Of a stretch of 64,000 bases of DNA, positions 10,201 to 35,648 are shown piece after piece (position 1 is the first letter of the stretch; each line of letters begins with the position of its first letter). Source of the DNA: Azonexus sp. (GTDB lineage Bacteria; Pseudomonadota; Gammaproteobacteria; Burkholderiales; Rhodocyclaceae); contig NZ_JAVBXX010000003.1 of assembly GCF_030824335.1 (NCBI RefSeq), forward strand, positions 46,472 through 110,471. The letters are read 5' to 3'. Below the pieces are notes generated by a model, which worked only from the letters and a program-made list of their open reading frames with translations, was not told the DNA's origin and did not search any database. Made by a program: the position numbers and the translations under genes.

Positions 10201-13200
10201 CGTATCGACCACGGCACGGCGTAGTGCCTGCCGGTCCGGGCCGTTCGACGTCGCGGGTGGATTGGCGATTAACACGGGGGCTGCAGCTTCAACACTGACC
10301 ACCGGGTGGGCTGAACCAAGCAGGCGAGCCACTTCACCGAGCAGTGCGCCAACCGTTGGCTGGGCATAGACACAGGTGGCGGGCAAGGCGATGCCCAGCC
10401 GGGCATTCAGCTTGCGAACCCAGGTTACCGCCAGGATGGAATCCAGACCAAGTGCCAGGAAACCGTCGCTGTCGGCAATCTCCGTCGGCGCCAGCAACAA
10501 TTCCTCGGCCAGCGTCTCGACCAGTTGCTGCCGCAACGCTGCCCGCTGCCCTGCCTGCTGCCCCCCCGAGAGGTCCGGCAATTTGCCAGATGCTGGCTGG
10601 GTGGCGGCAAAACTGCTGGCGATGCGCTCCATGACCAACGGATTGCCGATGAAGGTTTTTTCGTGCATCGCCACTTCCTTGACCAGCACGGCCTCGATCT
10701 CGCCATGCAGGACGGCGCTTGCCGCCGCCTTGGCCGCCTGTAATTGTTGCGGTGTCTGGCTGGCCAGACGATGGGCCACGGCCAGCGCGCGTGGCAGGAC
10801 TTCACCCGCCGGGAAAACCGGCAAGGGCATGCCACGCCGGGCGAGTTCCCTGCCCTTGAATTCGCGGGCCGAGAACAGAACCTCACGCCCCAGGTCATCA
10901 CCCAGGCGATGTGGAAAAACCAGGGTCGCACCGGCACCGGGCGTGAAACCGAAACGCAGGTAATTGCTGTGATAAACACTGTCGGCGGCAAACAAGGCCA
11001 GATCGCAGAACATGCCGAGCGACCAACCGGCCCCGATGGCATGCCCCTGCATGGCGGCAATGACCGGTAGCGGGAAATCCAGCGGCAGGCTGTAAATCCG
11101 CTGATCGGTGAAGCGCGTGTCGCCGCGCTGCAGGCTTTCCAGCCCTTCGCGCGTCCCACCACAGGCAAAGTAGGCATCGTGGCCGGTCAGCACCAGCACC
11201 TTGCACGCCGGCATCTCGGCGAGCCGCGCGAAAGCCTCGGTGATGCCTTCCATGAAGGCGGGCGTAAAGGTGTTCTTGTGCTGGCGTTCGAGCATGTGCA
11301 ACACAGCCACGCCATCATCGAACAATTCGAGGGCGATGACCGGTGATGCCAGGGCCAGACGCTGCGGAGCCCCCCAAAGCGCCTGCTCGTCAGCCGTCGG
11401 CAGCCCTTCAGCCAGTTCGCGGCTGCCCAGCGGTGGCGGTGGCAGATCCTGCGGCGCTTGCGGCCCGCGACGCATATGCGCTTTCAATTCGATCAGGGCA
11501 AGGCGCGGGGCAGCGGCAATCTGGTGCGCCAGCGCCATCGCCTGCTCGGCAAGCACTTCCGGCGCGACGACAGCAAGGCCGCTGGCCAGTTCTCGCCCGG
11601 CAACTTCACCCCACAGACGGCGAACCGCTGCCAGGCCAAAACGACGTCGCAACAATGCAGCCGGATCACCTGCCAGGTCGCTGGAAAAATCAGCCGCGAA
11701 GCCCGGTTGACCGTGATAAAGCCCGTTTTCGGCCAGAATCAGGAAATCGCAGTGGGCGGCCAGTGCCAAGCCAGCCCCGCGTGCGGCAGGCACGGCAGCG
11801 ATGATCGGCAGCGGACACAGCAAGGGCACCGCCAGTGCGGCTGGTGCGGCATTGAAATCGAGCGGCGCCCACCAGTCACCCGTGAGCAACAGCGCAGTGA
11901 CCTGCAAATCGGCGGCGGCAACGGAAAGTTCGCCAGCCAGTTCGGCCAACAACGACACATCCCAAGGACCGACGATCTGCAGGGTACGCAGCCCATCGAC
12001 ATCGGGCAGGCGTTGCAGACGGGCGACACCCGACAAGCGCTCGGTTAAGGGCGCCAACTGCACCGGGCGCAGATGGCGCGGTTTGCTCTTTGCTTCGGCC
12101 TCGGCCCGGAAGCATTCGGCCGGCGGCAAAAGGCGATGCACGACTCGTCTGGCTGTGCCGGTCACAAGCCGGGCCGCTTGCGCGGGCGGCAAAACCGGCT
12201 GGGTGAGCGACTCCACGGCGCTGACGGCCAGTTCGACCGACCCAGGCGCAGCATCGACCCAGTACGACTTGCCGGCAAAGACATAGGTCGGCAAGGGAAT
12301 GCGCTGTCTCGAACCAGCGGCAAACTGTCGGCTTGGTGCCGCGTCGTCGCCCGCCAGGAAGGCCTGCGCCAGTTGCCGCAGCATGGCGCAATAGCCGAGT
12401 GCGTCACCGGCAAATGCCCGTCCCGGCAGATCCGGTTGCGTTGCACCATCTTCACACTGCGCCGACACTACAGCCGACACCGTATCGGCATCCCCCTCCC
12501 CGGCCAACCAGGCAGCGAGACGGGTGCCAAGCGCAGCCCGGTCTTCGGCCAGCACGGCCAGGCGGTGGACAAAATGCCGACGACCGACCGCCAAGGTGTA
12601 AGCCACATCGCTCAGCCGCTGTTCCGGTCTGGCCGGCAAATGGGCGAGCAATGCCGCAGCCTGTGCCCGCAACTGCTCGGCCGAACGTGCCGATAGCACA
12701 CACAAGCAGGCTGGCATTTCCGGGGTTTTTGCTGCGTTGACCGCAATATTTTCCTCAATGACCAGATGGGCATTGGTCCCGCCAAAACCGAAGGAACTGA
12801 TCGCTGCCTGGCGCGGCTGCTCTGGCTGGGTCGGCCAGGGCAGCGGTCGATCATTGAGGAAGAACGGACTATCGGCCATGGATAGCGCAGGATTCGGCTC
12901 TCCGGCGTGCAGCGTCGGTGGAATCTGTTCATGTTCCAGCGCCAGCAAAACCTTGAGCAGACCAGTGATACCGGCAGCAGTTGTGGCATGACCAAGATTG
13001 GATTTGATCGAGCCGAGGGCACAGTAGCCGCGCTCCGCCGTCCAGCCACGATAAGCCCGGCTCAATGCCGCGTGTTCGATGGGATCGCCGAGCGGTGTGC
13101 CGGTGCCATGCGCCTCGACCAGGCCGATACGCGCCGGATCGATGCCGTAGCGTTGGTAGACCTCACGGATCAGTTGCTCCTGCGACAGCGCACTGGGCGC

Positions 13201-16200
13201 CGTGATGCCGTTGGTCGAACCGTCCTGATTGATGCCACTGGCGACGATGACACCATGAATGGTGTCGCCGTCGGCCAAGGCCTGGGACAAGGGACGCAGC
13301 AACACCGCGGCAACTGCCTCACCCGGCACGATGCCGTCGGCACCGGCCCCGAAGGCAGCACAGCGACCGCTGGGCGAAAGCATGCCGGCCTGATTGGCGT
13401 AGCGATAAAACCGGGGCGACGACTGAATGAACACGCCACCGGCCAGCGCCAGGTCGGCATCCCCCTGCCACAGACTCTGGCAAGCCAGGTGCACCGCCAC
13501 CAGCGAACTCGAACAGGCCGTATCGACGGCGACGGCCGGACCTTTCAAGTTCAGATGGTAAGCAATGCGCGCTGGAATCAGCGAACAGGTGTTACCCCAG
13601 AACGCCTGCCCCGGCGGCTGGCTGCGGAAAAGTTCCTGGTAATCGCCGTGAGCACAGCCGACAAATACGCCGCAGCGGCGTCCTTCGATATCGGCACCGG
13701 CATGACCGGCATGTTCCAGCGTACGCCAGGCTTCCTCGAGGAACAGGCGTTGCTGCGGATCCATGTAGGTCGCTTCGAGCCCGGAGATATTGAAGAAGCG
13801 GGCATCGAAGCGATCAATCTCCGAAATGAAGCTGCCATGCTGACACCAGCTCCCCGGCTCGGCGTCGCGGAAGAACGGTGCCAGGTCGAAACGGCTTACC
13901 GGCTGAACCAGATCGTCGCCGGCCATGAGGTGCTGCCACAAGGCCTCGGGGCCGGCCGAGCCGGCAAACCGGCCGCTGTAGCCAACGATGGCAATCGGTT
14001 CGCCCAGTTCGGGGGGGGCTGAACGGGCTGGCGGCGCTTGTGGCAAAGTCAGCTCAAGCCGGTCGGCACCGTGCATCAATGCTGCCTTGCTGGCGGAGAT
14101 GTCCGAAACCGCCTCTGCCGCAACGGGGGGAAGGTTGACCTTGGCGATGCTGGCCCCCAAGGCTTGAAGATGGACGGCCAACTGGCTGACGCTCGGATAA
14201 TCGAACAAATCGGTCTGCACCAGTTTCACATCAAGCTGCTGCCGCAGGCGGTGCACCAGTTCTGCGCCAAGAATGGAATCCAGACCGTAATCGGCGAAGG
14301 AAAGGCCGGCGTCAATCTGGGTCGGTGCCAGGTTCAAGGTGGTGGCTAAAGCCGCGACGATCAGACCGGCGAGATCTTTGGCTGTCCCAGCTGCAGTGAT
14401 CGTGCCAGTCGAAGGGACGACAAGCGTTGCTGCGGCACCGGGATTGGCGGTGCTGCTGTCGGGATTGTCGCCAGGATAGGCATCTCTCGCCGAGCCGTGA
14501 TCGCCCTTGCGTTGAGCAGCCCAAACCTGCTGACCCAAAGCGTGCTCCTCGTCCGGCGTTCCACCCAGCCAGACCAGTCCCAGTTCGCCCACCAGGGCTT
14601 GCCAACTATTTGGCGTCAGCGCCGGCGAACCGGGAATGCGCCGTGACGCATCGGCAAAGCGCCACCAGCCTTCGAGCAAACCGAAAGTCAAATGGGTGAA
14701 CAGCGTGGCGCAACTGGTTTCGTTAACCAGCAGAATGCCACCAGGAGCAAGCAGATCGCGCACATTAGCCAGGGTCCGGTCGATATACCGGGTCGCGTGC
14801 AGAACATTGGCCGCAATGACCAGATCGTAGCCCCCCGGCACGACATCCTGCCCGACCAGAGGCTGCTCGACGTCGAACAAGGTCGGGCGCAGCCACGGTG
14901 CCCTGGCACGGAAATGCCGCTCGCCATGGATCAGGAAAGCCCGCGATACGTCGGTATAACAATATTCGGCAATGCTCTCGGTCAGCGGGGTTGGCCTCTG
15001 GGTTGAGCGCACGCTCAGCGCCGCCAATACGGGCTCAGTCGTCCCGCCTGTACCGGCACCAATTTCCAATATGCGCAAACGACATGCCGGATTCAGCGCC
15101 CGTCGCTCGGCCAGCACGGCTGCCGCGGCCTGCGCCAGGCAGGCGTTGAACCGGCCCGCTACCGCGTTTTGCTTGTATACGGCCTCGACGAGGTCCATCC
15201 GGCCATCGGGGAACATCACGGCGGTGGCAGCCAGGCGCTCATCAAGAATTTCCGGCAGTGCATGCAGCACGGTTTCAACCAGGCGAATCTGGGCGGCGGG
15301 TCCATCGGCGATGGCTGCCCGCTGCCGATAAGTCGTCCAGGCAGCCCAGGCGCTGGTCAAATCTTCTCCCGTAGAACCCGGGTACGCCACCAGCAAATCA
15401 AGCAAGGCAGTTCGCCAGGGTTCCCAAGCCGGGCCGAGGGGCTGCGTCGACAAATCGGGCAGCACGGCGCGAACCAATTTGGCCAGTTGGCTTTCCAGTT
15501 CGTCGTGCACTTCCTGCAAGGCAACGCGGCCGGGCTGCGGCGTGTGCAGCACTTTCTCCAAGACCGCGGTCAAGCGCTCGGACTGCCGCGTCGGCAAGCT
15601 TGACGCAGCAGCGCTAGCGAGCGGCCAGTAGCGCTCCCTGGCAAAAGGATAGGTCGGTGCGCTGACCACGCGTGGCGGGTTCTGCCGGGGCAACAAGCGC
15701 CAATCCACATCGACGCCGTGCACCCATAATCCCAGCACGCGCGCCAGATTGTCGCTCACCGCGCCGGCCGCCAGCCAACGCCCGATAATGCTTTGTACAT
15801 CCGGCTCGTCGGCCAGCAGGCCCAAGGCACTGCGTCGCCCGCTGGTATTGCCGCTCAGCGTGCCGTCCGGGTTTTGTCCGGGCACCGCCTGCAACCATGC
15901 CCGCAGCGCATGCGCCAGTTCCTCGTAGGTCGTGGTCTGGATGGCCAGACGATACTCCATCGCCTCCCGGCCAATTTGCAGGGTCCACGCCAGATCAGCC
16001 AGGGGCGGTAGCGCGGAATCGCTGACTGCTTGCCTTGCGGCCGGCAATACCTCCGTCAGTGCGGCGGCAATCGTCGCGATGCAATCCCAATCGGCCACGG
16101 CAGCCACACTCAGGGATATCTCGAAACGCTGCTCCAGGGCATGGCGCAGGGCATGTCGGTGCACGGGCTCGAGGCCGTAGCTATCGAGTGGCTCGTGGGG

Positions 16201-19200
16201 GTCAAAATCGACGGCATCGACACTGAGCAAACCGGCCAGCAACTCGGCGATGACGGGTATCAGGGCCGGGCGACGCACGGTTTCAGCACCGACTGCGGGC
16301 TGTTCGATGAAAGCCAGCAGGCGCTCGGCAACGGCCCGCAGGCCCGCGGCATGGCGCGCCGAAAGCAGGATGGCCTGGCGACTAGCCGAATTTATGTGCC
16401 CGGATTCTGCGCGCACAGAGGCGGCACGCGGCCACTCTTCCAGCACGAGGTGGGCATTGGCCCCGCCAGCACCGAAGGAGGAAACCCCGGCGCGGCGCGG
16501 CGCCTGAGCGACACCGCTGGGTGCCGGCCAGGCAGCGAGTTGGCGTTGCAGGTGAAATGGCGTCCCGGCCAATTCCAGATTGGGATTAAGCGTGTCGGCG
16601 TGCAGGGTCGGCACGAGCTGCTGATGGCGCAGTTGTAGCAATACTTTAGTCAGGCCGGCAATGCCTGCTGCCGCTTCAAGATGACCAATCGCCGACTTCA
16701 CTGACCCGAGGGCGCAGGTCGCGCTGGTAGCGGCGCCCTCACGCTCAGCGAAAGCCTGACACAGGCCGCTGAATTCGATCGGATCACCCAGCTCGGTTCC
16801 CGTGCCGTGCGCTTCGATATAGCCGATGCTGGCAGGGTCAATGCCGGCGTGCACCATTGCCGCCTTGACCACCTCGCCCTGGGCCAGCGGATTGGGCACC
16901 GTATAACCGCTGGTCGTCCCACCGTGATTGATCGCACTGCCCCGGATCAGGCCATGGATCTGGTCGCCGTCGGCCAGCGCCCGCGACAGGGGTTTGAGGA
17001 CGACGCAACCGACGCCCTCGCCCGGCACGAATCCGTTACCACCCGCCCCGAAACTCCGGCAGTGGCCGTCGGGACTGAGCATGCGGGCAGCACACAATTC
17101 AATGTAGTTGTCCGGATGCAGGTAAAGATTGACCCCGCCGGCCAGGGCCATGTCGCACTCGCCCCGGTGCAGGTGTGCGCAGGCTTCGTGGATGGCCGTC
17201 AACGACGACGAGCACATGGTATCGATCGGCATGCTTGGCCCCTGGAGGCCGAGGCAGAAAGAGACGCGATTGGCGACACTGGCAAAGGAAGTGGAGGGGC
17301 GAACGCGTGAACCGCTGCTGCCGGTTTGCAGACCATGCAGCGCATAACCGGTTTTGGTGACCCCGACAAAAACACCGACCCTGCCGCCCATCTGCTCGGC
17401 CAGGCGAGTCCTGGTATAACCGGCATCCTCACAGGCCGCCCAGGCTTCCATCAGGAACAACCGCTCCTGCGGGTCCATGGCCAGCGCTTCGCGCGGGGAT
17501 ATCCGGAAGAACAAGGGATCGAAATCGGCAAAACCGTCGAGGAAACCACCCCAACGGGAATAACTCAGCCCCTGGGCAACGGCCTGCTCCGGATCAGCTT
17601 CATAGAAGCCATCCAGGGACCAGCGTTCGGCCGGGATCTCGACGATGCTTTCGCGCCCGGCAAGCAGATTGGCCCAGAACTGATGCACATCGGCCGCCCC
17701 CGGATAGCGACCGCTCAGACCGATGATGGCGATAGGTTCCGGTGCATCGGCGTGGGTATTGGAACGAGGCAGCGCATCGCTCGGGGAATATGCCAGCGTG
17801 ATCATCTCGCCGGTAGCGCCAGTCGCGAATGTCCGGCCATCCAGTTGGCTGGAAATTGCCCCGATATTGCGGTCGACCGCAATATTTTCATGAAAACCCG
17901 GCGCGCCGAGGACTTCCTGGCCGACCCAGTCCCGGCACGCCGCAGCGTGCTGGTTCAGCAAGTAAGCAGCAACCTGGCCCAGTGTCCGATGTTCGAAAAA
18001 CAGGGTTTTTGACAGTCGACCGAAACGCTCACCCAAGGCCTGATTCAAGCGGTTGATCATCAACGAATCGATACCGTAATTTTCAAGCGGTTGATCAAGC
18101 TCGATCTGAGCTGCCGACAGCCCGGCGATCCGGCCGAGCAATTCGCCCAAATGCTGACCGACGGCCCGGCGCAAGACAGTATCAATACCGGCAGCTACCC
18201 CACCGATTGTTCTAGCCGCTTCGCCACCCAAGGCTAGGCCGGGCAACATGGCGGCCTGCCGGAAAAATGCCCGGATGCGGTCCGCCTCGCCAGCCACCAC
18301 GGCAAGCTGGCGATGGCCGCTCGAGATGGCCGAACGCAAGGCAGTCAGCCCCGCCGCACTGGCCAAGGGACGCTGCCCCATCTGGGCAAAAAATGCCTGC
18401 TCCCCAGCTGCATCGACCTGCATGCCGCCATCCCGCCAGAGCGGCCAGTCGATGGCGAGCATCGGTGCTCCCTGGCTTTCCGCCAGCGCATCAAGGAAAC
18501 CGTTGGCCGCAGCATAATCCGCCTGCCCGGCATTACCGACGGCACCGGCCAGCGAGGAAAAATGCACGAAACAATCCAGCGCCAAGCCACGACAAGCTTC
18601 ATGCAGCGCCCAGGCACCCAGCACCTTGGGGGCCAGCACCGCTTGTAACTGTGCCTGCGTCTTGCGGATAAAGGCACTATCGCGGTGGATACCGGCACAG
18701 TGAATTACCCCATGCAGCCCCCCATACTGCGCCTGGCAATCTTCGACCAGGGCGCTCACGGCAGCCGCATCGCAGATATCCACTTGCCGGTAGTGCACCT
18801 TGGCACCCAACTGACGCAAGTCCTCCAGCGCCGCCTGACGCGCCGGATCGAGCGGCGATACACCGGCCAGAACCAAGCTGGCGCCGGGTGCCCGGCGGGC
18901 AATATCCGCCGCGACCAAACGCCCCAAGGCACCCAGCCCCCCGCTGATCAGATAAATCCCGCCGGGACGCCAGTCGGTGGCGAGCGAAATTGGCGGCAAC
19001 ACTGGCGGCAAATCGCGCCAGAGCCGGACAAAACGTTCGCCCTCCTGGTAACGCACCCGCCGGTGCTCTCCAGCCCCGGCTTCCCGGTCCAGGCAAGCCA
19101 ATGCCTCGGCAGCCGACCATGTTGCCGGCACCTCGACCACCTGACCACGCACGCGCGGCATTTCGGCTGTGACACTGTCGAGCAAGGCAGCCAAGCCGGC

Positions 19201-22200
19201 ATGCACGCTGCGCACACCATCGCGGGGAACCAGTAGCTGAACCAGCAACTCCCCTGCAATACCGGTACTCACCGTTTGTTGCAGGGCCTGCAGAAGAATG
19301 CCGGCCAGCGTCTGGTAACGCGCCGCCGGCGTACCGAGTAAAGGTGGCACGGCAATCAACGCCGTAGCGGAGCCTGCCCCAGCGGCAAGGGGAAACTCGC
19401 AGGGCAGGATCAGACGCCGCAGCGTCAGCGCCCCGCTGCTTGCCGATGACTGCGCTGGCGAGGGCAATGGCAGCGCCTGCCAGTGTGGCACCAGCATCAG
19501 GGCTGGGCTGGCCGCCGGGGCCGACCCGGCGCTGACACGGTCTGCCCCACTCGCCTCTCCAGCGACTGGCAGCCAGTAACGGGTGCTGGCAAACACCTTC
19601 GGCGGCAAGGCTTCTCGCCGTGGCGCTTGTCCCGACCCGAGATACTCTTCGATCACGACATGAGCATTACTGCCGCCAAAACCAAAGCTGCTGACACCAG
19701 CCCGACGCGGCAGTAAGCGGCCATCAGCATCCACCGGCTGGGACCAGGTCTGACGCGAGCGCACCAGATAAAAGGGACTGTCCTGCAATTCGATATAGGG
19801 ATTGACCGAGGCGCAATGCAGGGTGGGCGGCAAGGTCCGCGCCGCCATCGCCAGGATGACCTTGAGCACACCAGCCAGACCGGCTGCCGCTTCAAGATGA
19901 CCAATATTCGACTTGACCGAACCCAGGCCGATGCTGTCCCGTGGCAAGCGAGCATCCAGCCCGGCGTAGGCCAGACGCAAGCCGTTGATCTCGACCGGGT
20001 CACCCAGGCTGGTGCCGGTGCCGTGCGTTTCGATATAGCCGATGCTGGCCGGCTCGATCCCGAGCATCGCTTGTTGTACCAGTTCAGCCTGCGCCTTGGC
20101 ACTGGGTGCGGTCAAGGAACCGGCATGACCACCATGGTTGACCGCGCCACCGGCGATCAGACCCAGGATGCGGTCACCATCGCGTTCGGCAGCGGCTCGC
20201 CCTTTGAGTACCAAGACCACCGCACCTTCGCCCCGAACATAACCATCGGCGGCACTGGAGAAAGTCCGGCAGCGCCCGCTCGGGCTCAACATGCCGGCTT
20301 GCCATGGGCCGGCGAAACCCTCGATGGACAGGGCCAGATTGACACCGCCGGCCAGGGCCATGGCACAACGCCCACTACGAATTGCCTCGACAGCCCGCAA
20401 CAGGGCCACCAGGGAACTGGAACAGGCGGTATCCACCGCCTCGCTCGGCCCATGCAAATTGAATTGCCAGGACAAGCGATTGGCAACCATGGCCAAGGAA
20501 TTGCCAGTCGCCACGTAGGCATCGCTGTCTACGCCGGCATCCTGCAAGAGACTGGCGTAATCGCGGCCGCTGACGCCGACGAAAACCCCCGTTGCCGCCG
20601 GCAGCTCATCGGGACGATACCCGGCAGCCTCGACAGCGCGCCAGGCGGTTTCCAGCATCAAGCGCTGTTGCGGATCGAGACGACTGGCTTCATGGGGCGA
20701 GGTTTTGAAAAAGGCGGCGTCGAAACAATCGATATCGCTCAAAAAGCCGCCCTGAAGGGGAAAACCGGCAGCTTCGAGACGACTGCGATAGGCCGCTGGA
20801 TAACGCTCGAGCGGTAGATCGCCGACCAGATCATCGCCCTGCAGCAGGCGCTGAAAAAACGCCTCGGCATCCGTCGCCCCTGGTAGCCGCGCCGCCAGGC
20901 CGACAATCGCCACGGCATCGTCCGCAGCCTGCTTCGCCACCCGCGCTGCATCCGTCGCATCCTTGGCAACAGGCTGTGCTGTTGCAGGTAACGCGGAAAC
21001 GGCTTCGGGTACGACTGCCGGTGCAGGCAGGCGTGCCGCCAGCCAGCCAGCCAGCGACTCGATATGCTCGCATTCGAAGAAAATGGCCGGCGTCAGGCTG
21101 GCCTCGTAGCGGGCATTGATCTCATTGGCCAGCCGGGTCAGCGAAATGGAGTCAAAACCGAGATCGTGGAAGGGCGAACGCGGATTGATGTCAGCCACCG
21201 GGAACTTGAGCAAATCAGCCACCAGTTCGCACACTCCCAGGCTGAAAGCAGCGCGTGCCACGGCCTCGGGATGAAGATCGTCATGCAGACGGGAAACAGC
21301 CCCCGAAGCAGCCGGAGGCATTGCCGGGATAACTTCACTGGTCGTGGCGCCAGCCGGTGCGCCCAAGGTCAGGCGGTCCGCTGACGGTTCGGCGGCTGAA
21401 GCGATGAGTGCAGCCCGAGTTGCAGCCCGCGGCGACCAGGCCAATTGTTCAGGCAGCGCCAGAGACAAGCCGTTCAGCCCGGCCACGACCGAGCCGTCGG
21501 CCGCCAGGAAGCACACATCCCATCCCTCCCCAGCCAGCAGCGCCGGGCGAAGCAGAAGGTGGCTGACCACGCCACCGGCAAGGAAAACATCGGCCACCCG
21601 ACTCAGGCCGTAGGCGGCAAACTGCGGCCGGAGCAGCAACAGGGCTTGCCAGGCAGCCCCCAACTGAGCGGCCGGGAATTGTACGTTGCGCTTGAAGTGA
21701 TCCTGCATCGGATAGTCCTGGCGCAAGCTGAGCAATACCCCGTCACCGGGTAGCTGCCAAAGCGACTCAACGACTTCCTGGTAGGGCAGGAAAGACTGTT
21801 TTTCCCGGGCCAGTTCCTGGTAAAGCGCCGCGCCCGAAAGACTGCGTACTGAATCAGCCCGCAATGCATCGAGCGCAATGGCCGGCCGATCAGCCGGCAT
21901 GCCTGATGCAACCCGCACACGAGCAAACGGCCGACTGGACGCCCCCCCCTCAGTAACGGCAAGTTCGATCAGTGGCACCGTCCCCTCTGCCAACACCTGC
22001 GCCGACAATTCACTGACCCGCGACCAGTCCGGGGAATAGCCGATTTCCAGTTGGCTCAGTGCAAGGCCTTCGCTGAATCCAGCCAGATGAGCCACCGCCG
22101 CCACCATTTCGACCACCACTGTGGGCAGCAGGCGGGGCTGACGATTGACCGTGTAAACGTAATCAAGCAATTCGTTCAGGTAGATCGGGGTCTGGTAACG

Positions 22201-25200
22201 CAAGCCATGCCGGTCGGAACGATTGCTGGCGACAAAGGGGTGCAGTTTCAGGCTGGAACCGAGCGGATTAACCACCGAGGGCGCATCCGGATATTCCTGA
22301 TACCAGCAGCGTACTTGCTCGAAGGGATAGGACGGCAGGGAAACCCGCCGCCGCGCTGACGCGCCGGCTAACTGCTCCCAGGGGATGACCACACCGTCGC
22401 ACCACCAGGCAGCGAGCCGGGCCAGATCGTGATTGGCCAAGGCATCGGCTACTTGGGCAGCGTCGACCCGAGGATCTCGGTCAAGAATGCTCGGTGTAAA
22501 CAGCAGGCCGTTTTCGGCTTGTCCAGTGGCCAGGAAATGGGTCAAGCCCTGCCCCAACTGCGCTCCATCCCGCGCCACCACGGCCAGACGGCATGGCAGC
22601 TCGTTGCGCCCGATCTGCAAGGTCCAGGCCACGTCTGCCAACGCAGCGGGACTGGCTGACAGATAGGCGACAAAACGCGTCAACAAGGCACGCAGACGCT
22701 CGACATTCATTGCCGAGAAGACAAACAACGAATCCGCTGCGGCCGCCACTGCAGGGAGTGCAGGGGCGGCAGGATATTCTTCGAGGATCAGATGAACGTT
22801 GATGCCACCGGCACCGATTGACGTGACGCCGGCGCGCCGCGGCAATTCGCCACCCGCCGCATCCCGCTGGCGCGGCCAGTCGGCCAGTTGGCGCTGCACC
22901 CGGAATGGCGTATCGGCAAAAGGAATGTTCGGGTTGAGCGTTTCGGCATGCAGGGAAGGCGCAATTTTGCCCTGTTGCATCTGCAGCAAGACCTTGACGA
23001 TGCCGGGCAAGGCGGCAGCGCCGAGCAGGTGGGCCACGTTCGACTTGACGGTACCGATCGCGCAACACTGGGGTTCGCGCATGTATTTGCCGTAGATCTC
23101 GGTCAAGGCCCGGATTTCAATCGGGTCGCCAAGCGCCGTGCCCGAACCGTGTCCCTCGATATAGCTGATGCTGGCCGGATCGACGCCGCTATCGTCCAAC
23201 GCCTTGGCGATGGCAGCCGCCTGCTGTCGTGGGTTGGGCACGGTAAACCCATTGCGCACCCCGGCATTGCTGATGCCGCTGCCCTTGATCACGCCATAAA
23301 TATGATCGCCATCGCGCTCGGCATCACTCAAGCGCTTCATCACCAGGGCGCCGACACCTTCACCAAGAATGGTGCCATCGGCCCCCAGGCCGTAACCGCG
23401 AATGACTTCTGCGGTCTTGCTGGTGAAGTGTTCCTGCGAGGTGGCGATCAGCTTCTGCGGATGCAACAGCAGGCTGATGCCGCCAGCCAGTACCATTTTG
23501 GTACGACCGCTGCGCAGCATGTGCACGGCTTCATGGACACAGGTCGCGGCGGCCGAGCACATGGTGTCGAGGAAATAGGACGGGCCGGTGAAGCCGTAGT
23601 AATACGACACCATGTTCGGCACCGTGCCGGTGTAACTGCCGCTGGCCAGCGAACCGCGTTGCAGCATGTTCTGGAAGCCATACAGGTTGTAATCGTTGGT
23701 CATTGACCCGACGATCACCGCGACATCGCCACCATATTTGCGCTGCAGCGTCTCCCGTGAATAGCCGGCATCCTCGAAAGCTTCGACACAGCTCTGCAGG
23801 AAGAGCCGGACTTCCGGTGACATCAACTCGGCTTCGGCTTGGGAAATGCGGAAATAGCGTGGATCGAAGCGATCGATCCCGTCAAGAAAGGCACCGGTCT
23901 GGACGACTGTTTTGCCAAGGACATCGCGCTCGGGATGAACCAGTGCTTCGTGATTCCAGCGCTCGGCCGGATAACGCCGGAAACCGTGCTCGCCCTGCGC
24001 CAACAGACGCCAGAAACTTTCCTGATCATCGGCCCCGGCGACATGCAGGGATAAACCGACAATCGCCACATCGTGTTCGCCCTGCTCCGTCTCATCTTTC
24101 TTGCCGGTTTCGTCCGTCGCTTCTTTTGTCTGATTTCCCGTTGTTTCGCCAAGCAGCGTTGCGTCGGCCGGCATGGTTATTTCAGCGCTCGGAGCCACAA
24201 GCTTTTCTGCGTCGGCAGAGAACAAGGCAGTCAGGGCTGCCGCTTTTTCTTCCACCAGATACCCTGCGACGCCCTGCAGATCGACATATTCAAAAAACAG
24301 GGTTTTCGACAGTTGACCGAGAGATTCTTCCATCCGGTTGGTCATCTCGACGATGACGATGGAGTCCAGCCCGTATTCCTCCAGGCGGCGATGTGCCTGA
24401 ATCCTCACCGGATCCATCTGGATGAGTTCACCCAGCAAGTCCCTGAGCCAGTCACTGGTCCGCATCGTCAGATCGGCGGTAGAAAGCGCATTTGCCGGTA
24501 GCGCAAGCGTCAAACGATCATCGCTCTGAGCGGGCGTGGCCAGTGCTTGAGTTGCCTCGATACCGACACCGTCATCGGTGCCAAATCTCGCCAGCACCTG
24601 GCTAATCCGCTCGACCGGGCCGTATTGCAAAGTGATACGGCTGGGCACCCCGTCTGCCAGCACACTGTCGAGGGCCGCCAAGGCCACCGCCGTTGGTAGC
24701 GGCACAGTGCCAAAACGGCGCTGCAAGGCTGCCTGGGTGGCACCATCCACCGCCATGCCACCATCGGCCCATAGCGGCCAAGCCATGGCGACGGTACGAC
24801 CACTACGTTCACCACGGTTGACTTGCTGACTACGCGCGTCCGCCCAGGCATCCATGAAGGCGTTGGCAGCGGCGTAATCACTTTGCCCGGGATTACCGAA
24901 GGTCGCGGCAATCGATGAGCAGACCAGGAAAAACTCAAGCGGAAGCTGACGCGTTGCCGCATCGAGGTTGAGTACACCAGTGACCTTGGGCGCAAAAACC
25001 GCGGCTACGTCTGCTGCTTGCTTGTTCAGCAGATAGCCGTCGCGCAACACACCGGCAGCATGGATGATCCCCTTGAGCGGGCCAAGCTCGGCCTCGATCC
25101 AGCCAACCAGGGCGGCGACTTGCTGTTCATCGGCGACGTCGCACGAGCGATAGATCACCCCAGGTATTGCCAACCCGTGCGCTTCAGGCGCGCGACCTGC

Positions 25201-28479: not shown

Positions 28480-30786
28480 TTAGCCTTGTGGAATCTGCAT
28501 CATGGCAAAACGCTGAACCAGCAAGGCGGCTGTTTTATCCATCAGGTGCCTGGCCAGTTCATCTACGTGTCGAGCGCGCCAAGGCGCCAGTTCGCTCCCC
28601 TGCACCGCCTGGTTGAATGCACCAAGTGCAGGACCGCAATGAATCTGAAAATCCAGTTTATGCGCGCTTTCGCCACGCAATGCCCAGCGACTTGCGTCCT
28701 TGAAATAACGCCCGAAAATCAGCGCCATCCGATGTTTCGGACTGCGCGCCGCACGCTCCAGGTCTGCGGCCGGACAGCTTGTTTGCAACTCGGCAAAAAC
28801 CTCGTCCAGGCTACGCTGGAAGTATCGTTCCTCGAGTTGCTGACGGGTCTTGGCATCCAGCTCGTCAATCGACTCGTGTTGTCGGTAAAGGCTGGCCAAC
28901 TTGTTAGCCCGGTTCGGGAAAAAGATCCCTTTTTTCAGAACCTGCACTCGCGAACCCATTTCGAACTGCAGACCAGAAGGCGCGTAATCGGTGTCGTAAA
29001 CCTGCATTTCCTGCAACAAATCCTTGACCAGATCGCTGGTTCCCGCTTCGACCGTACATTGGTTGATCGAACCAGTCATGATGAAATCGGCCCCCATCAC
29101 GAAAGCAGCCGCGGCAGCCTCGGGCGTTCCAATACCACCGGCAGCCCCGACATAAAGCGGGTGCGCTGGATAGCGGCGCAGCATCTCGTCACGCACACCC
29201 AAGGCCGCCGGAATCAAGGTAAAAGGCATGCGCTGGTCAGTATGCCCACCCGAGTCAGCTTCCATGCACAGGGCATCGGCCATCGGTATGTCAGCCAACA
29301 GTAACGCTTCTTCTTCGTTCAGCCCGCCACTGGCCAGCAACTTGTCAATCAGGCGCTGCGGTGCAGGAGAAAAGAACTGCGCCCCCACATCGGGTCGGGA
29401 AACCTTGGCGACAATTCGATTCCGCACCTCAACCCGCCCGTCCGGACGACGTAACAACCCCTTCGCACGATAACGGACCAATGCTGGCGTCACCTCGACA
29501 AAAGCAGAAGCCTCAATGGTCCTCACGCCGTGAACAAGCAGCAGGTCAACCAGTTGATCCTCAAGTTCGGGGCGATGAATGTGCGCAATAAAATTGACAC
29601 CATAGGGAGCCCCTGACGGAATAGCCTGCTGGATACGGACGATGCTGTTCTCTATCGTCTCCATATCCAGCCCCCCTGCGCCAAAGAAAGCCATTAGCCC
29701 AGCCTTGGCCAGACGCACCACCATATCCACCGAAGAAATGCCCTGGTACATGCCACCGGCGAGGTAAGCGTATTTGAGATTGAAGGTCGCGCGAAATGCA
29801 GCAGAACCAAGAGAAGCCGCACCAAAATGCAGGGGAGTGACGTTCGACACGACCGGAAGCGGATTGATCTGCTGTTGGCTGGCGCTATCGGTCAACGCCT
29901 CCTCGGCCAAAATGCTGGCATCAAGCGGGCCAGCCTCAGTCTGGGTACGCATGACCATCGGCTTCACCACGCTGATCCCCGGCGGACCAATTTCATCAAA
30001 ATCACCGACTGCCAGACCCTTGGCCAGAAGGTAGCGCAGGCTTTCAGCCCAGCGCACCGGTGCCGTGATCTGCTCGATCATGCGCTCCCGGATCAAGCCT
30101 GGAAGGTGTGGGCGCGCCGTGACGTTCGAAATAACCGGAATGGTCGGCGCAGCAAAATGCACTTGCTGGGCGAATTCGCCAAAGGCATCGCGGGCATCCG
30201 CCATAAAAGGTGTATGGAAGGCACCACTGACTTGCAACAGCTTGAAGTACGTCGCCCCGGCTTCCATAAACAGCGACTCGGTCTGAGCAACCGCCTCCCG
30301 GCGCCCGGACAGTACAATCTGCAAAGGCGTATTGAAATTGGCGGCATGGACATCGCTCAACCCGTGTTTGACCAATACCGCTTGAATCTTTTCTTCATCA
30401 AGCCCAAGCACCGCTGCCATGCCGCCGCCATGCGCCTGCCCCATCAACTCGCCGCGCTTTTGCACAAGGCGCAGCCCGGTTTCAAAATCCAGCACCCCTG
30501 CGGCAAACAGTGCAACGTACTCGGCAACGCTATGACCAAGCAGGAAATCCGGTAAAGGTGCATTTTGAATACGCTGCAGGTAAGCAAGACTGTTGACCAC
30601 ATATAGTGCCGGCTGCGTAAATTGAGTCTGGGTAAGTCGCTCCAAGGGCCCGGCCAGGCAAAGTTCGGCAACCGAATAACCAAGGATGCCCTCTGCCTGA
30701 CGCAACAAGTCCGGGAAGGCTGCAAACAAGTCCTTACCCATGCCAATACGCTGCGCCCCCTGGCCGGGAAACATAAAAGCTTTCAT
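28480..30786 (-). CDS. trans-acting malonyl acyltransferase fused to FMN-dependent enoylreductase (AT-ER, PksE/PedB-like)
   Basis: MKAFMFPGQGAQ start with GGAGG RBS; ATG 30786 overlaps the upstream TGA, so the track start at 30822 is probably too long. AT motifs GHSVAEY and SGAFHT; PfaD-like ER motifs AGGMYQGI, EADSGGHTD, GAAGGIGTP, TGSINQCTVEAG. Confidence 0.93.
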   Translation of the reverse strand: MKAFMFPGQGAQRIGMGKDLFAAFPDLLRQAEGILGYSVAELCLAGPLERLTQTQFTQPALYVVNSLAYLQRIQNAPLPDFLLGHSVAEYVALFAAGVLDFETGLRLVQKRGELMGQAHGGGMAAVLGLDEEKIQAVLVKHGLSDVHAANFNTPLQIVLSGRREAVAQTESLFMEAGATYFKLLQVSGAFHTPFMADARDAFGEFAQQVHFAAPTIPVISNVTARPHLPGLIRERMIEQITAPVRWAESLRYLLAKGLAVGDFDEIGPPGISVVKPMVMRTQTEAGPLDASILAEEALTDSASQQQINPLPVVSNVTPLHFGAASLGSAAFRATFNLKYAYLAGGMYQGISSVDMVVRLAKAGLMAFFGAGGLDMETIENSIVRIQQAIPSGAPYGVNFIAHIHRPELEDQLVDLLLVHGVRTIEASAFVEVTPALVRYRAKGLLRRPDGRVEVRNRIVAKVSRPDVGAQFFSPAPQRLIDKLLASGGLNEEEALLLADIPMADALCMEADSGGHTDQRMPFTLIPAALGVRDEMLRRYPAHPLYVGAAGGIGTPEAAAAAFVMGADFIMTGSINQCTVEAGTSDLVKDLLQEMQVYDTDYAPSGLQFEMGSRVQVLKKGIFFPNRANKLASLYRQHESIDELDAKTRQQLEERYFQRSLDEVFAELQTSCPAADLERAARSPKHRMALIFGRYFKDASRWALRGESAHKLDFQIHCGPALGAFNQAVQGSELAPWRARHVDELARHLMDKTAALLVQRFAMMQIPQG

Positions 30787-32438
30787 GGCGTCGCCTCCAG
30801 TTCCTTCCCTTTTTTCTCCCATTCCACACCCCCCAGATCCAGCTTGATCACACGATCAGCCACATGCCAGAAACGGTCATCATGGGTCACGGCAATGACA
30901 GTTTTACCCTTTGCTTTCAAATCCGGCAGGATCCGGTTATAAAAATGCTGACGGAAGTGAAAATCCTGCTCAGCGGACCACTCATCAAATATGTAGATCG
31001 GACGATCTTCAAGTAGTGCAGCGATCAGAGCCAGGCGTTTTCGTTGCCCGGTTGACAGGTGAAGTTCGGAAAAACGTCCATCAACGTAACGCAGCTTGCT
31101 ACTCAAGCCCATCTCCCGAATCAGGCGATTGACCTCCTCCGGATCTCTGCCCTCTTGCCCGTAAAGTCTGTCGAACAAATGAAAATCGGCAAAAATTGCT
31201 GAAAACAGTTCGCGAAAACCTGGCACCTCATTTTTCGCCAAAACCTCCCCGTCTATCTCAATCTGACCACTCTCCACGGGATAAAGACCTGTAATCAAAC
31301 GCAGAGTTGTCGATTTGCCACTGCCATTGCCACCTACCAGAAAAATCAACTCACCGCGTTCTACTTCAAGATTCAACGGTCCCAAACTGAATTCTGCATC
31401 CCCCGATTTGGCACGATAGTTGAATACCAGATTTCGGTAGCCGATACGTTGAAAATCCCGATAAGGTTCCGCGAGCGCCCGAGCGGTCGCAGGGTCGACG
31501 CCAGGAGCCGCATCCAATTGCTGCTCCAGTGAAATAATCGACCTCAGTCCCACTTCAGCACGCACAAACATCGGTGAATGCGCCACGATCAGCGTCAGCG
31601 GCACAATACAAAACATCAGGGTGGCCACCAACTGAAAGACGATGGTGCTATGCGCCGGGACGTAAAGAGGGAAGATAAACCCGACAATCCCAAGCATTGA
31701 ATACACCATGAGCACGCTAAGCAGAACCATGGAAACCCAGTATTCACCAGCACCAACCATCAAACGATGCCCGGTCCGGGATAGATCTTCATAATCAGCG
31801 AAAACAGCTTCGCTGCGCCGGGTATTCAGTATTAACTCCTTCGAACCATCGATGATGTCCGAAATGGAGTCCAGCATCTTGCCTTGGCAGCGGCCCAACT
31901 CTGCGAGAGTCGTGCGAAAACGCGTATTGATGTTCAGGTAACCAACAATCCCCAACACGACGACCACAACAAAGACAATCAATGCCGGCACCGACAGATA
32001 AGCCAGATAAACAAGCGAAACGGCAAGCAGGATTGCCTGCTGAAAGCTATTGATCAATAAGGGAAATGTAACGGAAAGATGGTTGGTTTCCTGAGAAACC
32101 ATGGCATACAACTCCCCTCGCCCGACATCATCGAGGGTTTGCAATTCGGTCCGCCTGAGTTTGGCCGCCACATTGACCCTCAGGTCACGCAACAAGCCTT
32201 CGATAATCCGGTTGGCAAGGAGTAAGGCGCGGTTGTCGCACAAATAATACAAAACAAAAGCCATGACGAAGGCCAGCCAGTGCCAAATATCGGGCCGCTC
32301 CGCTTCGGCCACCAGTTCGGCCACCAGATTGACCATAACCACCAGAAGCGCGTTGGCGATTCCGGCAACCGAAGTCAGCAACAGCATCCGCCCCAAATCC
32401 GGCGGATTGGCCCGTTTGATAAAATCGAACAGGATCAT
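30783..32438 (-). CDS. Cyclic peptide export-type ABC transporter (SyrD/PvdE/YojI family), TMD-NBD
   Basis: Multiple TM segments, Walker A GGNGSGKST, signature LSTGQRKRL, FDEWSAEQD, VTHDDRFW. Confidence 0.9.
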   Translation of the reverse strand: MILFDFIKRANPPDLGRMLLLTSVAGIANALLVVMVNLVAELVAEAERPDIWHWLAFVMAFVLYYLCDNRALLLANRIIEGLLRDLRVNVAAKLRRTELQTLDDVGRGELYAMVSQETNHLSVTFPLLINSFQQAILLAVSLVYLAYLSVPALIVFVVVVVLGIVGYLNINTRFRTTLAELGRCQGKMLDSISDIIDGSKELILNTRRSEAVFADYEDLSRTGHRLMVGAGEYWVSMVLLSVLMVYSMLGIVGFIFPLYVPAHSTIVFQLVATLMFCIVPLTLIVAHSPMFVRAEVGLRSIISLEQQLDAAPGVDPATARALAEPYRDFQRIGYRNLVFNYRAKSGDAEFSLGPLNLEVERGELIFLVGGNGSGKSTTLRLITGLYPVESGQIEIDGEVLAKNEVPGFRELFSAIFADFHLFDRLYGQEGRDPEEVNRLIREMGLSSKLRYVDGRFSELHLSTGQRKRLALIAALLEDRPIYIFDEWSAEQDFHFRQHFYNRILPDLKAKGKTVIAVTHDDRFWHVADRVIKLDLGGVEWEKKGKELEATP

Positions 32439-34063
32439 GGCAATCCACTCCCATCCGGCACAACGACCTGCCCCAGATCCAGAGTCACGATCCGATCAGC
32501 AAGATGCCAGAAACGATCATCATGACTGACCACGACGACCGTCTTGCCAGCCTGTTTGAGCTCAGCCAGAATTTCCGTGTAAAAAACAGTGCGGAAATGA
32601 GCATCCTGATCGGCAGCCCACTCATCGAAAATATAAATTTCCCGTTCTTCGAGTAAGGCGACGACCATGGCCAAGCGCTTGCGTTGACCGGAAGAAAGAT
32701 TCTGAGTGGAAAAACGGCCATCGACATAAAACACCTTGTCCGACAGTTCCATCCGCTCAATCAACTGACTCACCTGGGCCACATCGACATGTTCCAATCC
32801 GTGGAGACGCTCGAACAAGTGGAAATCCGGGAATATGCAAGAAAAGAGTTCGCGATACTCCTGCACGGCATCCTTGGTAAGCACCTCCCCATCAACGCGT
32901 ACGTACCCAACATCCGGCGAATAAAGTGCTGAAATCAGCTTGAGGGCAGTAGATTTACCACTGCCGTTACCGCCCAGCAAAAACAACACTTCGCCACGCG
33001 ACAAGGCCAAATCCCAAGGACCAATACTGAACGTACTTGCACCCGATTCGTCGCGATAGGAAAACCCGATATTTTCAAAGGCAATACGCTCAAAGCCGCT
33101 GAAGCGGGATTCACTCGGCAAGCTATCGGACACTCGGGCGGCGCTGCCTCGATCCAGTGTCTGCTCCAGACTGAAAACATGCCCAAGCCCAATACTGGCC
33201 CGAGTAAACAGTGGTGCGGCTGAAGTAATTGCGGAAACTGGACCAACACAAAAAATGCCCACCGCAGCGATCTTGTAAATTACGTCGGTATAACCGTCAA
33301 AAAATCCCGGCAAGACAAAAATCACGACACCCAGCAAGCCATAGAGAAAAGCATTGCTGAACAACAACAAAACCACCCATTTCCCCCCTATCCCGACAAT
33401 CAAGGACTGCAGATCGTCAACAATCTGCACATAGCGGGCAAACAAGGCATCATTTTTATCAGAATTCAGGCGAATTTCCTGAAACCCTTCCGTGAAATGC
33501 GACAACGAGTCCAGCATTTCACTTTCCTGCGCATGAACGGAAATCATGGCTTTGTTAAGCGCCTTGCGTCTTGTGTAAAAAAACGCCATGGCCAGCAGCG
33601 CGACGCCACAAACCACCAAAAACGACACAAGGGACAAGGTGGCAATATAAAAAAGGCAAAAAACCAACAGGAACAAGCTTTGAGCAGCCCCGACCAACAA
33701 AGGGACATTTTGCGCAAGATGATTAGTTTCCTGAGCGACGACAGCATACAAACGACCGCGCCCAAGAGACTCCAGCGTGCGCAATTCAGCATGACGGATC
33801 TTGTCGGCAAGACGCAAGCGCAACTCGCCCAGGCGCGATTGGAGAAAATCATTCGCGCGACGCAACGATGTCTGGTTAGCCAGAACGTAGATGGCAAAAG
33901 CGAGGATATATAACGCCAGCAACCGAATACTAATCGGCTGAGCAAGCGCCGTCTGTTCCGCTGCGGTGTTTACCAAGCCGATCAAAACCGCATTGGCCAG
34001 CCCGGCCAGACAGGTAACATAGAATGCTCCCATCCTCCCCCCCGGCTTACCCATCTGAAACAA
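32435..34063 (-). CDS. Cyclic peptide export-type ABC transporter (SyrD/PvdE/YojI family), TMD-NBD
   Basis: Walker A GGNGSGKST, LSSGQRKRL, FDEWAADQD. Start uncertain: the frame is open to ~34117 and a GAGG precedes an in-frame CTG at 34081 (MKNLWRLFQMG...). Confidence 0.9.
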   Translation of the reverse strand: MFQMGKPGGRMGAFYVTCLAGLANAVLIGLVNTAAEQTALAQPISIRLLALYILAFAIYVLANQTSLRRANDFLQSRLGELRLRLADKIRHAELRTLESLGRGRLYAVVAQETNHLAQNVPLLVGAAQSLFLLVFCLFYIATLSLVSFLVVCGVALLAMAFFYTRRKALNKAMISVHAQESEMLDSLSHFTEGFQEIRLNSDKNDALFARYVQIVDDLQSLIVGIGGKWVVLLLFSNAFLYGLLGVVIFVLPGFFDGYTDVIYKIAAVGIFCVGPVSAITSAAPLFTRASIGLGHVFSLEQTLDRGSAARVSDSLPSESRFSGFERIAFENIGFSYRDESGASTFSIGPWDLALSRGEVLFLLGGNGSGKSTALKLISALYSPDVGYVRVDGEVLTKDAVQEYRELFSCIFPDFHLFERLHGLEHVDVAQVSQLIERMELSDKVFYVDGRFSTQNLSSGQRKRLAMVVALLEEREIYIFDEWAADQDAHFRTVFYTEILAELKQAGKTVVVVSHDDRFWHLADRIVTLDLGQVVVPDGSGLP

Positions 34064-34162
34064 ACGCCAAAGGTTCTTCAGTTGAATGCCCTCAACATAA
34101 AAACACCTGTGAAGAAATCATTTACATCCTCACCATGAGTCAAATTTTATGCAAAAGTATAA

Positions 34163-34936
34163 ATGACTTGGCCACAGACTCAGCAAGAACTTCAAATGCG
34201 CGTACCCCAATTGCATCAACATGAATGCCATCTCTGGCACATTTCCTTGTGCACACCGGATATGGCGCACTCCTTGCCAACGGAATGCTTGTCGGACGAG
34301 GAAAAAACCCGCGCAGCAAAATTTCTTCGCCCGGAGGCCCGACAACAATTTGTCATGACTCGTCACGCCCTACGCTCGCTTTTAGGCGCTTACCTGAACA
34401 CAACTCCGGAAAAAATACCGCTCCAGGCCAATCAATTCGGCAAACCATCCCTTCCCGTATCATTTGCTTCCCTGTACTTCAACGTAACTCACTCCGGCCA
34501 GCGGGGACTGATCGCCATCACCAGACAAGGCGAGGTGGGTGTCGATATTGAGCAGCAGCGCAAGATGAAAGACCTTCTGGGAATGGCCAGCATGATTTTT
34601 TGCCCGGAAGACCTGCGGGTATGGCAGGAGTTGCCAGTAGCAGAACAAATGCCTGCTTTCTACCGCGCATGGACAGGCAAGGAAGCAATGGCCAAGGCTT
34701 TGGGTTGTGGCCTGACAATTGACCTGAAAGGACTTCGTGTCGACTTTACGCATGAAGCACAGACACAATTCCTGGAAATGGATTTTCCCCCTGGGACAAT
34801 ACATCACTGGCATCTGGCACAACGCAATGTCGTACCAGGCTATTGCGCAGCACTGGCAATCAGAGGAAGCCCCCTCGAAACAATCGATTTAGCATTTGAC
34901 ACACAGCCTGTTCGAACTCCCGGAAATGCTGCTTGA
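34163..34936 (+). CDS. Sfp-type 4'-phosphopantetheinyl transferase
   Basis: Motifs FGKP, FNVTHSG, VGVDIE, WTGKEAMAKALG; divergent from the PKS operon. Confidence 0.93.
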   Translation: MTWPQTQQELQMRVPQLHQHECHLWHISLCTPDMAHSLPTECLSDEEKTRAAKFLRPEARQQFVMTRHALRSLLGAYLNTTPEKIPLQANQFGKPSLPVSFASLYFNVTHSGQRGLIAITRQGEVGVDIEQQRKMKDLLGMASMIFCPEDLRVWQELPVAEQMPAFYRAWTGKEAMAKALGCGLTIDLKGLRVDFTHEAQTQFLEMDFPPGTIHHWHLAQRNVVPGYCAALAIRGSPLETIDLAFDTQPVRTPGNAA

Positions 34937-35096
34937 GCAAACGCAAGCAAGGCAGACATCCCAGATAACTCAAGGACTTGCGTCCTGAGATCCGTTGTCA
35001 TCAGGCTGTGTATAATAATGAAAATTTCATTGCGTGCCTGATCACTCGCGCCACCTCAGTCGACCAACCGAATCAAGGGCTGATTCTTAGGAAAAA

Positions 35097-35648
35097 TTGT
35101 ACAACTCGATGAAAATCAATCTCTTGTGCACCATGAATCTCCTGTTACGGATGTCGATTTCGACTTGCCTGATGTTGGTCAGCAATGCTTTCGCACAAGT
35201 CGATTCGCACAAATCGGTCATCGACAAATACAGCAAAGAGTTGATCAGGCAGCGAGACAAAGGCCCTATTTTTGTTTCAGTCCCTGTAGCCTACGTCTTT
35301 GGCATGGGTGGCGAGCGTAGCCCACTCTATTGTTCACCATCTGTTCGGGCGGCAAATGGATCAAATAAAGTAATCGAAGAACTGATCGTCGGCATCACCT
35401 ATCGTTCGGCAGCCGGCTCATCTGCGGGCTCCAGTGTTTCGCGCTTTACCAACATCAAGGTAAAACGGATCGAGTCGCATTTTTTCAACCAGCTTGAAAC
35501 TTCGAAATGTTCCGGGTTGACCGGAGAATTAAATGTCGTTCGATGTGTTTACACAACTGGCGAAGATTGCTCGGACGATATTCAAGCAATTAACTTCGGT
35601 GCCATCCCGTTGCAATCACGAACAAAACATTCAGGGGAAAAACCATGA
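35097..35648 (+). CDS. Hypothetical exported protein with several cysteines
   Basis: Signal-peptide-like N-terminus ending SNAFA-Q; four Cys in the mature part; stop overlaps the next ATG; AGGA upstream of TTG 35097. Exact start uncertain. Confidence 0.7.
   Translation: MYNSMKINLLCTMNLLLRMSISTCLMLVSNAFAQVDSHKSVIDKYSKELIRQRDKGPIFVSVPVAYVFGMGGERSPLYCSPSVRAANGSNKVIEELIVGITYRSAAGSSAGSSVSRFTNIKVKRIESHFFNQLETSKCSGLTGELNVVRCVYTTGEDCSDDIQAINFGAIPLQSRTKHSGEKP

Follow-up and report, generated by a model that had tools for sequence, protein, structure and literature searches.

What does the second module of a giant polyketide synthase (PKS) from Azonexus sp. do to the chain that reaches it? The gene lies in a 64,000-nucleotide stretch of contig NZ_JAVBXX010000003.1 (assembly GCF_030824335.1), referred to here as the window. 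A preliminary description made from the sequence alone located at 21050-24077 a ketosynthase (KS), a branching (B) domain and an acyl carrier protein (ACP), and proposed that this module adds malonate to an enoyl thioester on the way to a glutarimide ring. The analysis confirms that the stretch is a genuine KS-B-ACP branching module in position 2 of the assembly line. Comparison with homologous clusters supports a glutarimide as the ring that this assembly line would form.

Results

Module 2 of the giant PKS is a KS-B-ACP branching module

The window encodes a 7083-residue trans-acyltransferase (trans-AT) PKS, for which Pfam gives the domain order KS1-dehydratase (DH)-ketoreductase (KR)-ACP / KS2-B-ACP / KS3-KR-ACP / KS4-(ACP-like insert)-methyltransferase (MT)-ACP / KS5-enoyl-CoA hydratase (ECH)-ECH-ACP-ACP / KS6-DH*, where DH* is a DH-like domain at the C-terminal end that has lost the catalytic His. 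Module 1 (KS-DH-KR-ACP) comprises residues 1-1420. Module 2 comprises residues 1466-2479 (window 21040-24081, minus strand) and contains the ketosynthase, a linker, the B domain and an ACP. The interval given earlier corresponds to residues 1467-2476 of the same minus-strand open reading frame (ORF), correct to within a few codons. The gene and the domains that bear on module 2 are as follows.

7225-28476, minus strand, SbnO-like trans-AT PKS (7083 residues; ORF list and Pfam)
27139-28449, minus strand, KS1 (residues 10-446, Cys181)
25837-26691, minus strand, DH1, predicted to form the enoyl thioester (residues 596-880; catalytic His625 and Asp795 kept)
24742-25287, minus strand, KR1 (residues ~1064-1245; Pfam KR/adh_short)
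24262-24459, minus strand, ACP1 (residues ~1340-1405, Ser1372)
22762-24081, minus strand, KS2, branching-type ketosynthase (residues 1466-1905; Cys1640, His1776, His1816)
22282-22761, minus strand, KS-to-B linker or flanking subdomain (Pfam RhiE-like_linker at residues 1919-1983)
21442-22281, minus strand, B domain, double hotdog (residues 2066-2345)
21040-21234, minus strand, ACP2 (residues 2415-2479, Ser2443)
19642-20913, minus strand, KS3 (residues 2522-2945, Cys2685)

KS1 opens the protein, so the starter must come from a free-standing ACP. The Pfam matches place module 2 directly after KS1-DH1-KR1-ACP1, and the conserved catalytic pair of DH1 agrees with the earlier statement that the branching module follows the first enoyl-forming module. 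ACP2 gives a PP-binding match of 66.8 bits with its serine present. Pfam detected no KR in module 2.

The 1015-residue stretch was aligned with RhiE of the rhizoxin PKS, one of the comparisons proposed at the outset. Query residues 5-817 aligned in one segment with residues 14-838 of the RhiE KS-B crystal structure 4kc5 (E = 7e-192). The B region alone (286 residues) had RhiE as its sole PDB match (E = 1.3e-8), and the next entry was a trans-AT dehydratase at E = 0.29. Catalytic residues were compared in an alignment of six B domains and three dehydratase-type domains of the window's own PKSs. The position of the dehydratase catalytic His is occupied by Tyr2108 in an LLDYVY motif that is identical in RhiE, and the position of the catalytic Asp is occupied by Gly2273. 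The Cys-His-His triad of KS2 is intact. The B region was also modelled with AlphaFold (pLDDT 85.3, pTM 0.84). The predicted fold is a double hotdog, closest in the PDB to 8oii and 4kc5, both RhiE KS-B structures (E ~1e-17, TM score 0.78). The domain had been described as a catalytically stripped double hotdog, a wording borne out by the two substitutions and consistent with the model.

The fold search also brings up a different interpretation, in which the B-like domain is an ordinary dehydratase or one of shifted function and KS2 is a normal elongating or a non-elongating ketosynthase, with no branching. PKS dehydratases match the model almost as well as the RhiE B domain does, with a TM score that is also 0.78, so a predicted fold alone would not discriminate a B domain from an active dehydratase. 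The Pfam RhiE_B profile (PF21887) scored 20.2 bits (E = 6e-4) on the B region, under its cut-off of 27. The catalytic-residue alignment, unlike the fold search, does tell the two apart, and it shows both residues of an active dehydratase to be replaced. Module 2 also lacks the KR that would supply a hydroxyl for dehydration, the B sequence matches RhiE alone in the PDB, and KS2 combines its intact triad with a place in a fully supported clade of B-associated ketosynthases (200/200; see below). A dehydratase in this position is thus very improbable.

KS2 groups with the ketosynthases of glutarimide PKSs

A neighbor-joining tree (200 bootstraps) was calculated from 156 KS domains taken from the window's two PKS proteins and the best 120 database homologues of the stretch. 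KS2 falls in a 13-member clade (200/200) with every sampled KS that shows a downstream B domain, RhiE included. The other clade members end soon after the KS, and a B domain is therefore not scorable in them. A subclade of 12 (199/200) holds KS2 and leaves out RhiE. It contains sequences from Streptomyces lydicus, S. nanshensis, Burkholderia gladioli, Burkholderia sp. Ac-20379, Roseibium salinum and Oceanibaculum. The window's other six KSs are all far from the B-associated clade, and KS2 lies outside the KS0 and double-bond-shift groups. KS2 had been called divergent, a description that fits its identity of 36-45% to the remaining KSs of the window's PKSs, compared with 63% to the glutarimide-type KS2 of S. 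lydicus.

The S. lydicus locus (L003) encodes, in order, an acyltransferase-thioesterase (AT-TE), an 83-residue ACP, a 656-residue asparagine-synthase-like amidotransferase, a 1537-residue PKS and a protein with KS-B-ACP-KS (P0001). This is the layout given for actinomycete glutarimide clusters in bioRxiv 10.1101/2020.09.18.303172. KS1 through KS5 of the window are 65, 63, 59, 66 and 57% identical to their positional counterparts in the S. lydicus locus, each of which is the positional best match. KS3, at 59%, has as its best match the KS that follows KS-B-ACP in P0001. Module 2 stands directly behind a KS-DH-KR-ACP module, between KS1 and KS3 domains that are orthologous to those of glutarimide PKSs.

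The module had also been described as rare, which overstates the case. An amidotransferase query retrieved 20 further genomes, from 19 actinomycetes and one Xenorhabdus, in which a distance of 6.3-7.6 kb downstream from the amidotransferase places the B domain in module 2. A KS-B-ACP module in this position marks glutarimide PKSs generally and, to our knowledge, is a signature conserved in all glutarimide polyketide pathways described so far.

Proposed chemistry and the lactone alternative

RhiE makes a delta-lactone from a hydroxyl group and works late in its assembly line. A module of the same type in Azonexus would close a delta-lactone and yield no glutarimide. RhiE, the sole homologue with a solved structure (4kc5, 8oii), aligns over both KS and B, and the likeness extends to the KS-B-ACP anatomy, the double hotdog, the shared LLDYVY motif and the loss of the dehydratase His and Asp. 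Such a module calls for a chain that arrives with a delta-hydroxyl and for a KS whose nearest relative is RhiE, and neither was found. Module 1 reduces and dehydrates the sole keto group, so the chain on module 2 carries no delta-hydroxyl. The RhiE KS is the outgroup to the subclade (199/200) that holds KS2, and KS2 is only 42% identical to RhiE compared with 46-76% to the subclade sequences. A glutarimide-type amidotransferase is also encoded on a contig of the same size as the window's. Lactone formation by this module is very unlikely.

The chemistry that fits module 2 as a glutarimide-forming unit has been set out in a literature model, in which malonamyl-ACP is extended once to an enoyl thioester, malonate adds in a Michael-type reaction and the amide closes the ring (PMC7756420). 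From the homologies described above, we infer the same starter, chemistry and product for Azonexus. An asparagine-synthase-like amidotransferase encoded outside the window would convert malonyl- to malonamyl-ACP on a free-standing ACP. Module 1 would extend the malonamyl unit once, reduce it and dehydrate it to an amide-terminated alpha,beta-enoyl thioester. KS2 would hold this chain while the malonyl group on ACP2 adds at the beta carbon, a Michael-type (vinylogous) addition that the KS2-B-ACP2 unit would catalyze, with the B domain serving as a non-catalytic scaffold. The terminal amide nitrogen would then close the six-membered glutarimide ring, and the chain that bears it would pass to KS3. 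This ketosynthase and the modules after it would build the remainder of a sesbanimide-like chain, with an exomethylene beta-branch introduced at module 5, and a monooxygenase would insert oxygen in the split module 6. The chemical logic of the preliminary description is probably correct.

The PKS is part of the core of a probable sesbanimide-type cluster

The genes on either side of the PKS identify the family to which the locus belongs. These features were assigned.

28480-30822, minus strand, trans-acting acyltransferase fused to a PfaD-family enoyl reductase (AT-ER; SbnN-like; Pfam, NCBIfam)
5906-7225, minus strand, flavin monooxygenase (SbnP-like; Pfam FMO-like), between both PKS genes and inside the split module
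2-5893, minus strand, N-terminal 1964 residues of an SbnQ-like PKS (ACP-KS-DH-KR-ACP-KS...), running past the window start
30783-34063, minus strand, two ATP-binding cassette (ABC) transporter genes, conserved in sbn-like clusters
34163-34936, plus strand, 4'-phosphopantetheinyl transferase (PPTase; Pfam), recurring in sbn-like loci
36005-37042, plus strand, SPFH/Band 7 protein (Pfam), recurring in sbn-like loci
37080-38027, minus strand, type II thioesterase (TE), last cluster gene on that side

The order AT-ER, giant PKS, flavin monooxygenase and a PKS opening with an ACP is that of sbnN-O-P-Q, the core of the sbn clusters. The locus is very probably a sesbanimide-type trans-AT PKS/nonribosomal peptide synthetase (NRPS) cluster, with the branching unit as module 2 of its SbnO-like megasynthase. 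Copies of the AT-ER in other sbn-like loci are 56-80% identical. The flavin monooxygenase ORF has 439 residues, and its database form, with a later start, has 437. The complete SbnQ-like product has 6676 residues. Its ORF crosses the window start and for that reason is absent from the ORF list. The impression from that list that the PKS ends at the monooxygenase is an artefact, since the SbnQ-like frame continues through 2-5893.

The split oxygen-insertion module occupies 5906-8046 and 2-5893 on the minus strand and consists of KS6 and the DH-like domain, the monooxygenase gene and then the ACP-first PKS. The DH-like domain after KS6 has Gln at the catalytic His position and retains the Asp. 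In the sbn clusters, a Baeyer-Villiger monooxygenase likewise has a KS-DH without the His motif on one side and an ACP on the other (PMC8262917; bioRxiv 10.1101/2020.09.18.303172), and SbnP-type monooxygenases are assigned the oxygen insertion (PMC8262917). The sbn clusters of Magnetospirillum gryphiswaldense MSR-1, Stappia indica PHM037 and Labrenzia (Roseibium) aggregata PHM038 share the order of AT, SbnO, monooxygenase and SbnQ with the window. Their SbnO proteins have the same six-module domain order, including the KS-DH without the His motif, and their SbnQ proteins are likewise ACP-first. The ABC transporters and PPTase are as in sbn clusters. A type II TE takes the place of the acylhydrolase in the clusters of Azovibrio, Azorhizobium and Magnetospirillum (bioRxiv 10.1101/2020.09.18.303172), and the window shows the same. 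In M. gryphiswaldense the cluster was linked by deletion and activation to sesbanimide R, whose glutarimide was assigned by nuclear magnetic resonance (PMC8262917). Gene deletion and spectroscopy in homologous clusters thus tie this architecture to glutarimide products.

The differences from the sesbanimide family are of degree. The host of the window is a betaproteobacterium, unlike the three sbn producers, and its accessory genes are arranged differently from those of other sbn-like loci. Relative to the Roseibium salinum counterpart, KS2 is ~71% identical but the B domain only 38% over 276 residues. The actinomycete glutarimide PKSs (cycloheximide, iso-migrastatin/lactimidomycin and 9-methylstreptimidone types) and the gladiofungin/gladiostatin PKS of B. 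gladioli share module 1 (KS-DH-KR-ACP) and module 2 (KS-B-ACP) with the window and are loaded by an amidotransferase and an ACP. In the available text of bioRxiv 10.1101/2020.09.18.303172 these clusters are without the tandem-ECH/tandem-ACP exomethylene module, the monooxygenase split module and the SbnQ PKS/NRPS.

The loading amidotransferase and the far end of the cluster

The malonamyl starter proposed in the preliminary description depends on an amidotransferase. A candidate is P0362 (WP_306602424.1), an asparagine synthase of Azonexus sp. with 653 residues that is of the glutarimide-type amidotransferase family. It is encoded on a 317,948-bp contig, the same size as the window's, and this is presumably the window's own contig. 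P0362 is 88% identical to P0288, the amidotransferase beside the sbn-type cluster of locus L004. P0288 shares its longest-contig size of 237,237 bp with a monooxygenase that clusters with that of the window at at least 90% identity.

L004 is the closest relative with a readable locus. Its second PKS ends with condensation-adenylation-peptidyl carrier protein-thioesterase domains (C-A-PCP-TE), followed by MT, cytochrome P450, hydroxymethylglutaryl-CoA synthase (HMGS), ACP, KS and ECH genes. Beyond this beta-branching cassette, on the opposite strand, lie an 83-residue ACP and the amidotransferase. The end block (C-A-PCP-TE, P450 and beta-branching cassette) also occurs in L005, L006, L009, L012 and the producer-strain loci L019 and L026. 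The arrangement seen in L004 is kept in Azovibrio restrictus, Azorhizobium doebereinerae, Roseibium aggregatum PHM038, Stappia indica and others. In Azonexus, the counterparts of these parts would fall outside the window. For R. salinum, the flank read upstream of the locus stops short of its amidotransferase.

The ACP-amidotransferase pair has two placements in betaproteobacterial sbn-like clusters. In L007 and L010 it adjoins the side with the TE, Band 7, PPTase, ABC and AT genes, and in L004, L005, L006, L009 and L012 it follows SbnQ and the beta-branching cassette; the two placements indicate that the cluster was rearranged repeatedly. In the window cluster the pair is not beside the TE side, unlike in L007 and L010.

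Several observations weigh against the glutarimide interpretation, beside the sub-threshold RhiE_B score and the near-equal dehydratase folds already given. Pfam searches of all large ORFs in the window and of the small ORFs in the 34-36 kb gap found neither an amidotransferase nor a loading ACP. Both would lie outside, so that the window alone is no proof of the starter. The connection of P0362 to the cluster is presumptive, drawn from the equal contig size of 317,948 bp and from the gene order in relatives. The representative-genome scan with the amidotransferase query did not include this Azonexus species, and its best match was 80%. The KS tree derives from one homology search and not from a curated set such as TransATor. 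No product is known from the host organism, and the evidence for transcription described below may reflect DNA carry-over. The proposal of a malonamyl starter and a glutarimide is nonetheless favored by the positional matches of KS1-KS5, the sbnN-O-P-Q order and the Azonexus amidotransferase.

Accessory and neighboring genes

Many genera have homologues of the SPFH/Band 7 membrane-scaffold protein, 34-45% identical, in their sbn-like loci, and its gene is not seen among those named in the available text of PMC8262917 or bioRxiv 10.1101/2020.09.18.303172. The accessory genes at 28480-38027 (AT-ER, two ABC transporters, PPTase, a 183-residue hypothetical protein, SPFH/Band 7 and type II TE) have 47-57% G+C, compared with 63% in both PKS genes and 61% in the adjoining glucan synthase. 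Most of these low-G+C genes nonetheless recur in other sbn-like loci.

Within the SbnO-like protein, an ACP-like domain (16057-16251, minus strand; residues ~4076-4140) sits in the linker after KS4, ahead of the MT. It matches Pfam PP-binding with 37 bits, above the cut-off, and has the DS motif PLDSYGLE. The R. salinum homologue has the same insert with Ala replacing Ser, and the alignment to the S. lydicus PKS ends ahead of it.

The 2965-residue ORF at 38065-46962 was considered as an upstream PKS and ruled out, since Pfam identifies it as a cyclic beta-1,2-glucan synthase. This minus-strand gene encodes GH94 domains, is of the NdvB/ChvB type and adjoins the cluster thioesterase. Farther along, a hopanoid/squalene operon at 48330-51230 (plus strand) encodes HpnD (49024-49977) and HpnE (49944-51230), both NCBIfam equivalogs, with a likely HpnC just upstream.

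In R. salinum (GCA_030410075.1, JAUFRB010000001.1; L002), the SbnO-like and AT genes are broken into many short overlapping ORFs, which suggests either frameshift-rich sequencing or a decaying cluster.

Occurrence and transcription of the locus

The Azonexus sp. genome comes from metagenome data of freshwater sediment. The same DNA is present on a 68,768-bp contig from a run labelled freshwater sediment metagenome, and near-identical sequence (23-77% of sampled 31-mers) was found in wastewater, groundwater, soil and freshwater metagenomes. Four wastewater libraries labelled 'RNA-Seq cDNA' contain contigs of 150-500 nt that are 97-100% identical to the PKS gene and scattered over it (window 11000-30900), which hints at transcription but may also reflect DNA carry-over. 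A few of the RNA contigs have chimeric joints between distant KS domains, and these resemble assembly artefacts of repeated KS sequence.

These data bear on the possibility that a cluster of intact appearance is silent or decaying in Azonexus, so that the module makes nothing in nature. Its product is not known, the related R. salinum assembly has SbnO in many short ORFs, and the RNA evidence is weak. Both giant ORFs of Azonexus are unbroken (7083 and 6676 residues), every active-site residue checked is present, near-identical sequence turns up across many metagenomes from wastewater, groundwater, soil and freshwater, and the wastewater RNA-seq libraries yield short contigs of 97-100% identity. 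A silent or decaying cluster is improbable on this balance, though less so than the lactone or dehydratase interpretations.

Discussion

A confident annotation of the window is now possible: it covers the larger part of the core of a sesbanimide-type glutarimide cluster. Earlier work already describes the KS-B-ACP logic, the malonamyl starter and this family of clusters, and the locus raises no new mechanistic question. Sbn-like clusters have been reported in many genera, and the list of carriers already includes Azovibrio restrictus, whose genus is related to Azonexus (bioRxiv 10.1101/2020.09.18.303172). With the present locus, Azonexus, a betaproteobacterium common in freshwater and wastewater, joins the hosts of sesbanimide-type clusters.

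The Azonexus version may make a sesbanimide congener not yet described, perhaps transcribed in wastewater and groundwater communities, a suggestion that we regard as tentative. It draws on the 38% identity of the B domain to that of Roseibium, the fusion of the AT to a trans-acting ER, the type II TE in place of the acylhydrolase, and the MT and P450 genes in the cluster of the closest relative. Because sesbanimides are cytotoxic at nanomolar levels (PMC8262917), a source that can be cultured or expressed could be of interest in natural-product chemistry. If such a congener exists and its cluster is transcribed, a cytotoxic glutarimide would be an ecological factor in engineered water systems.

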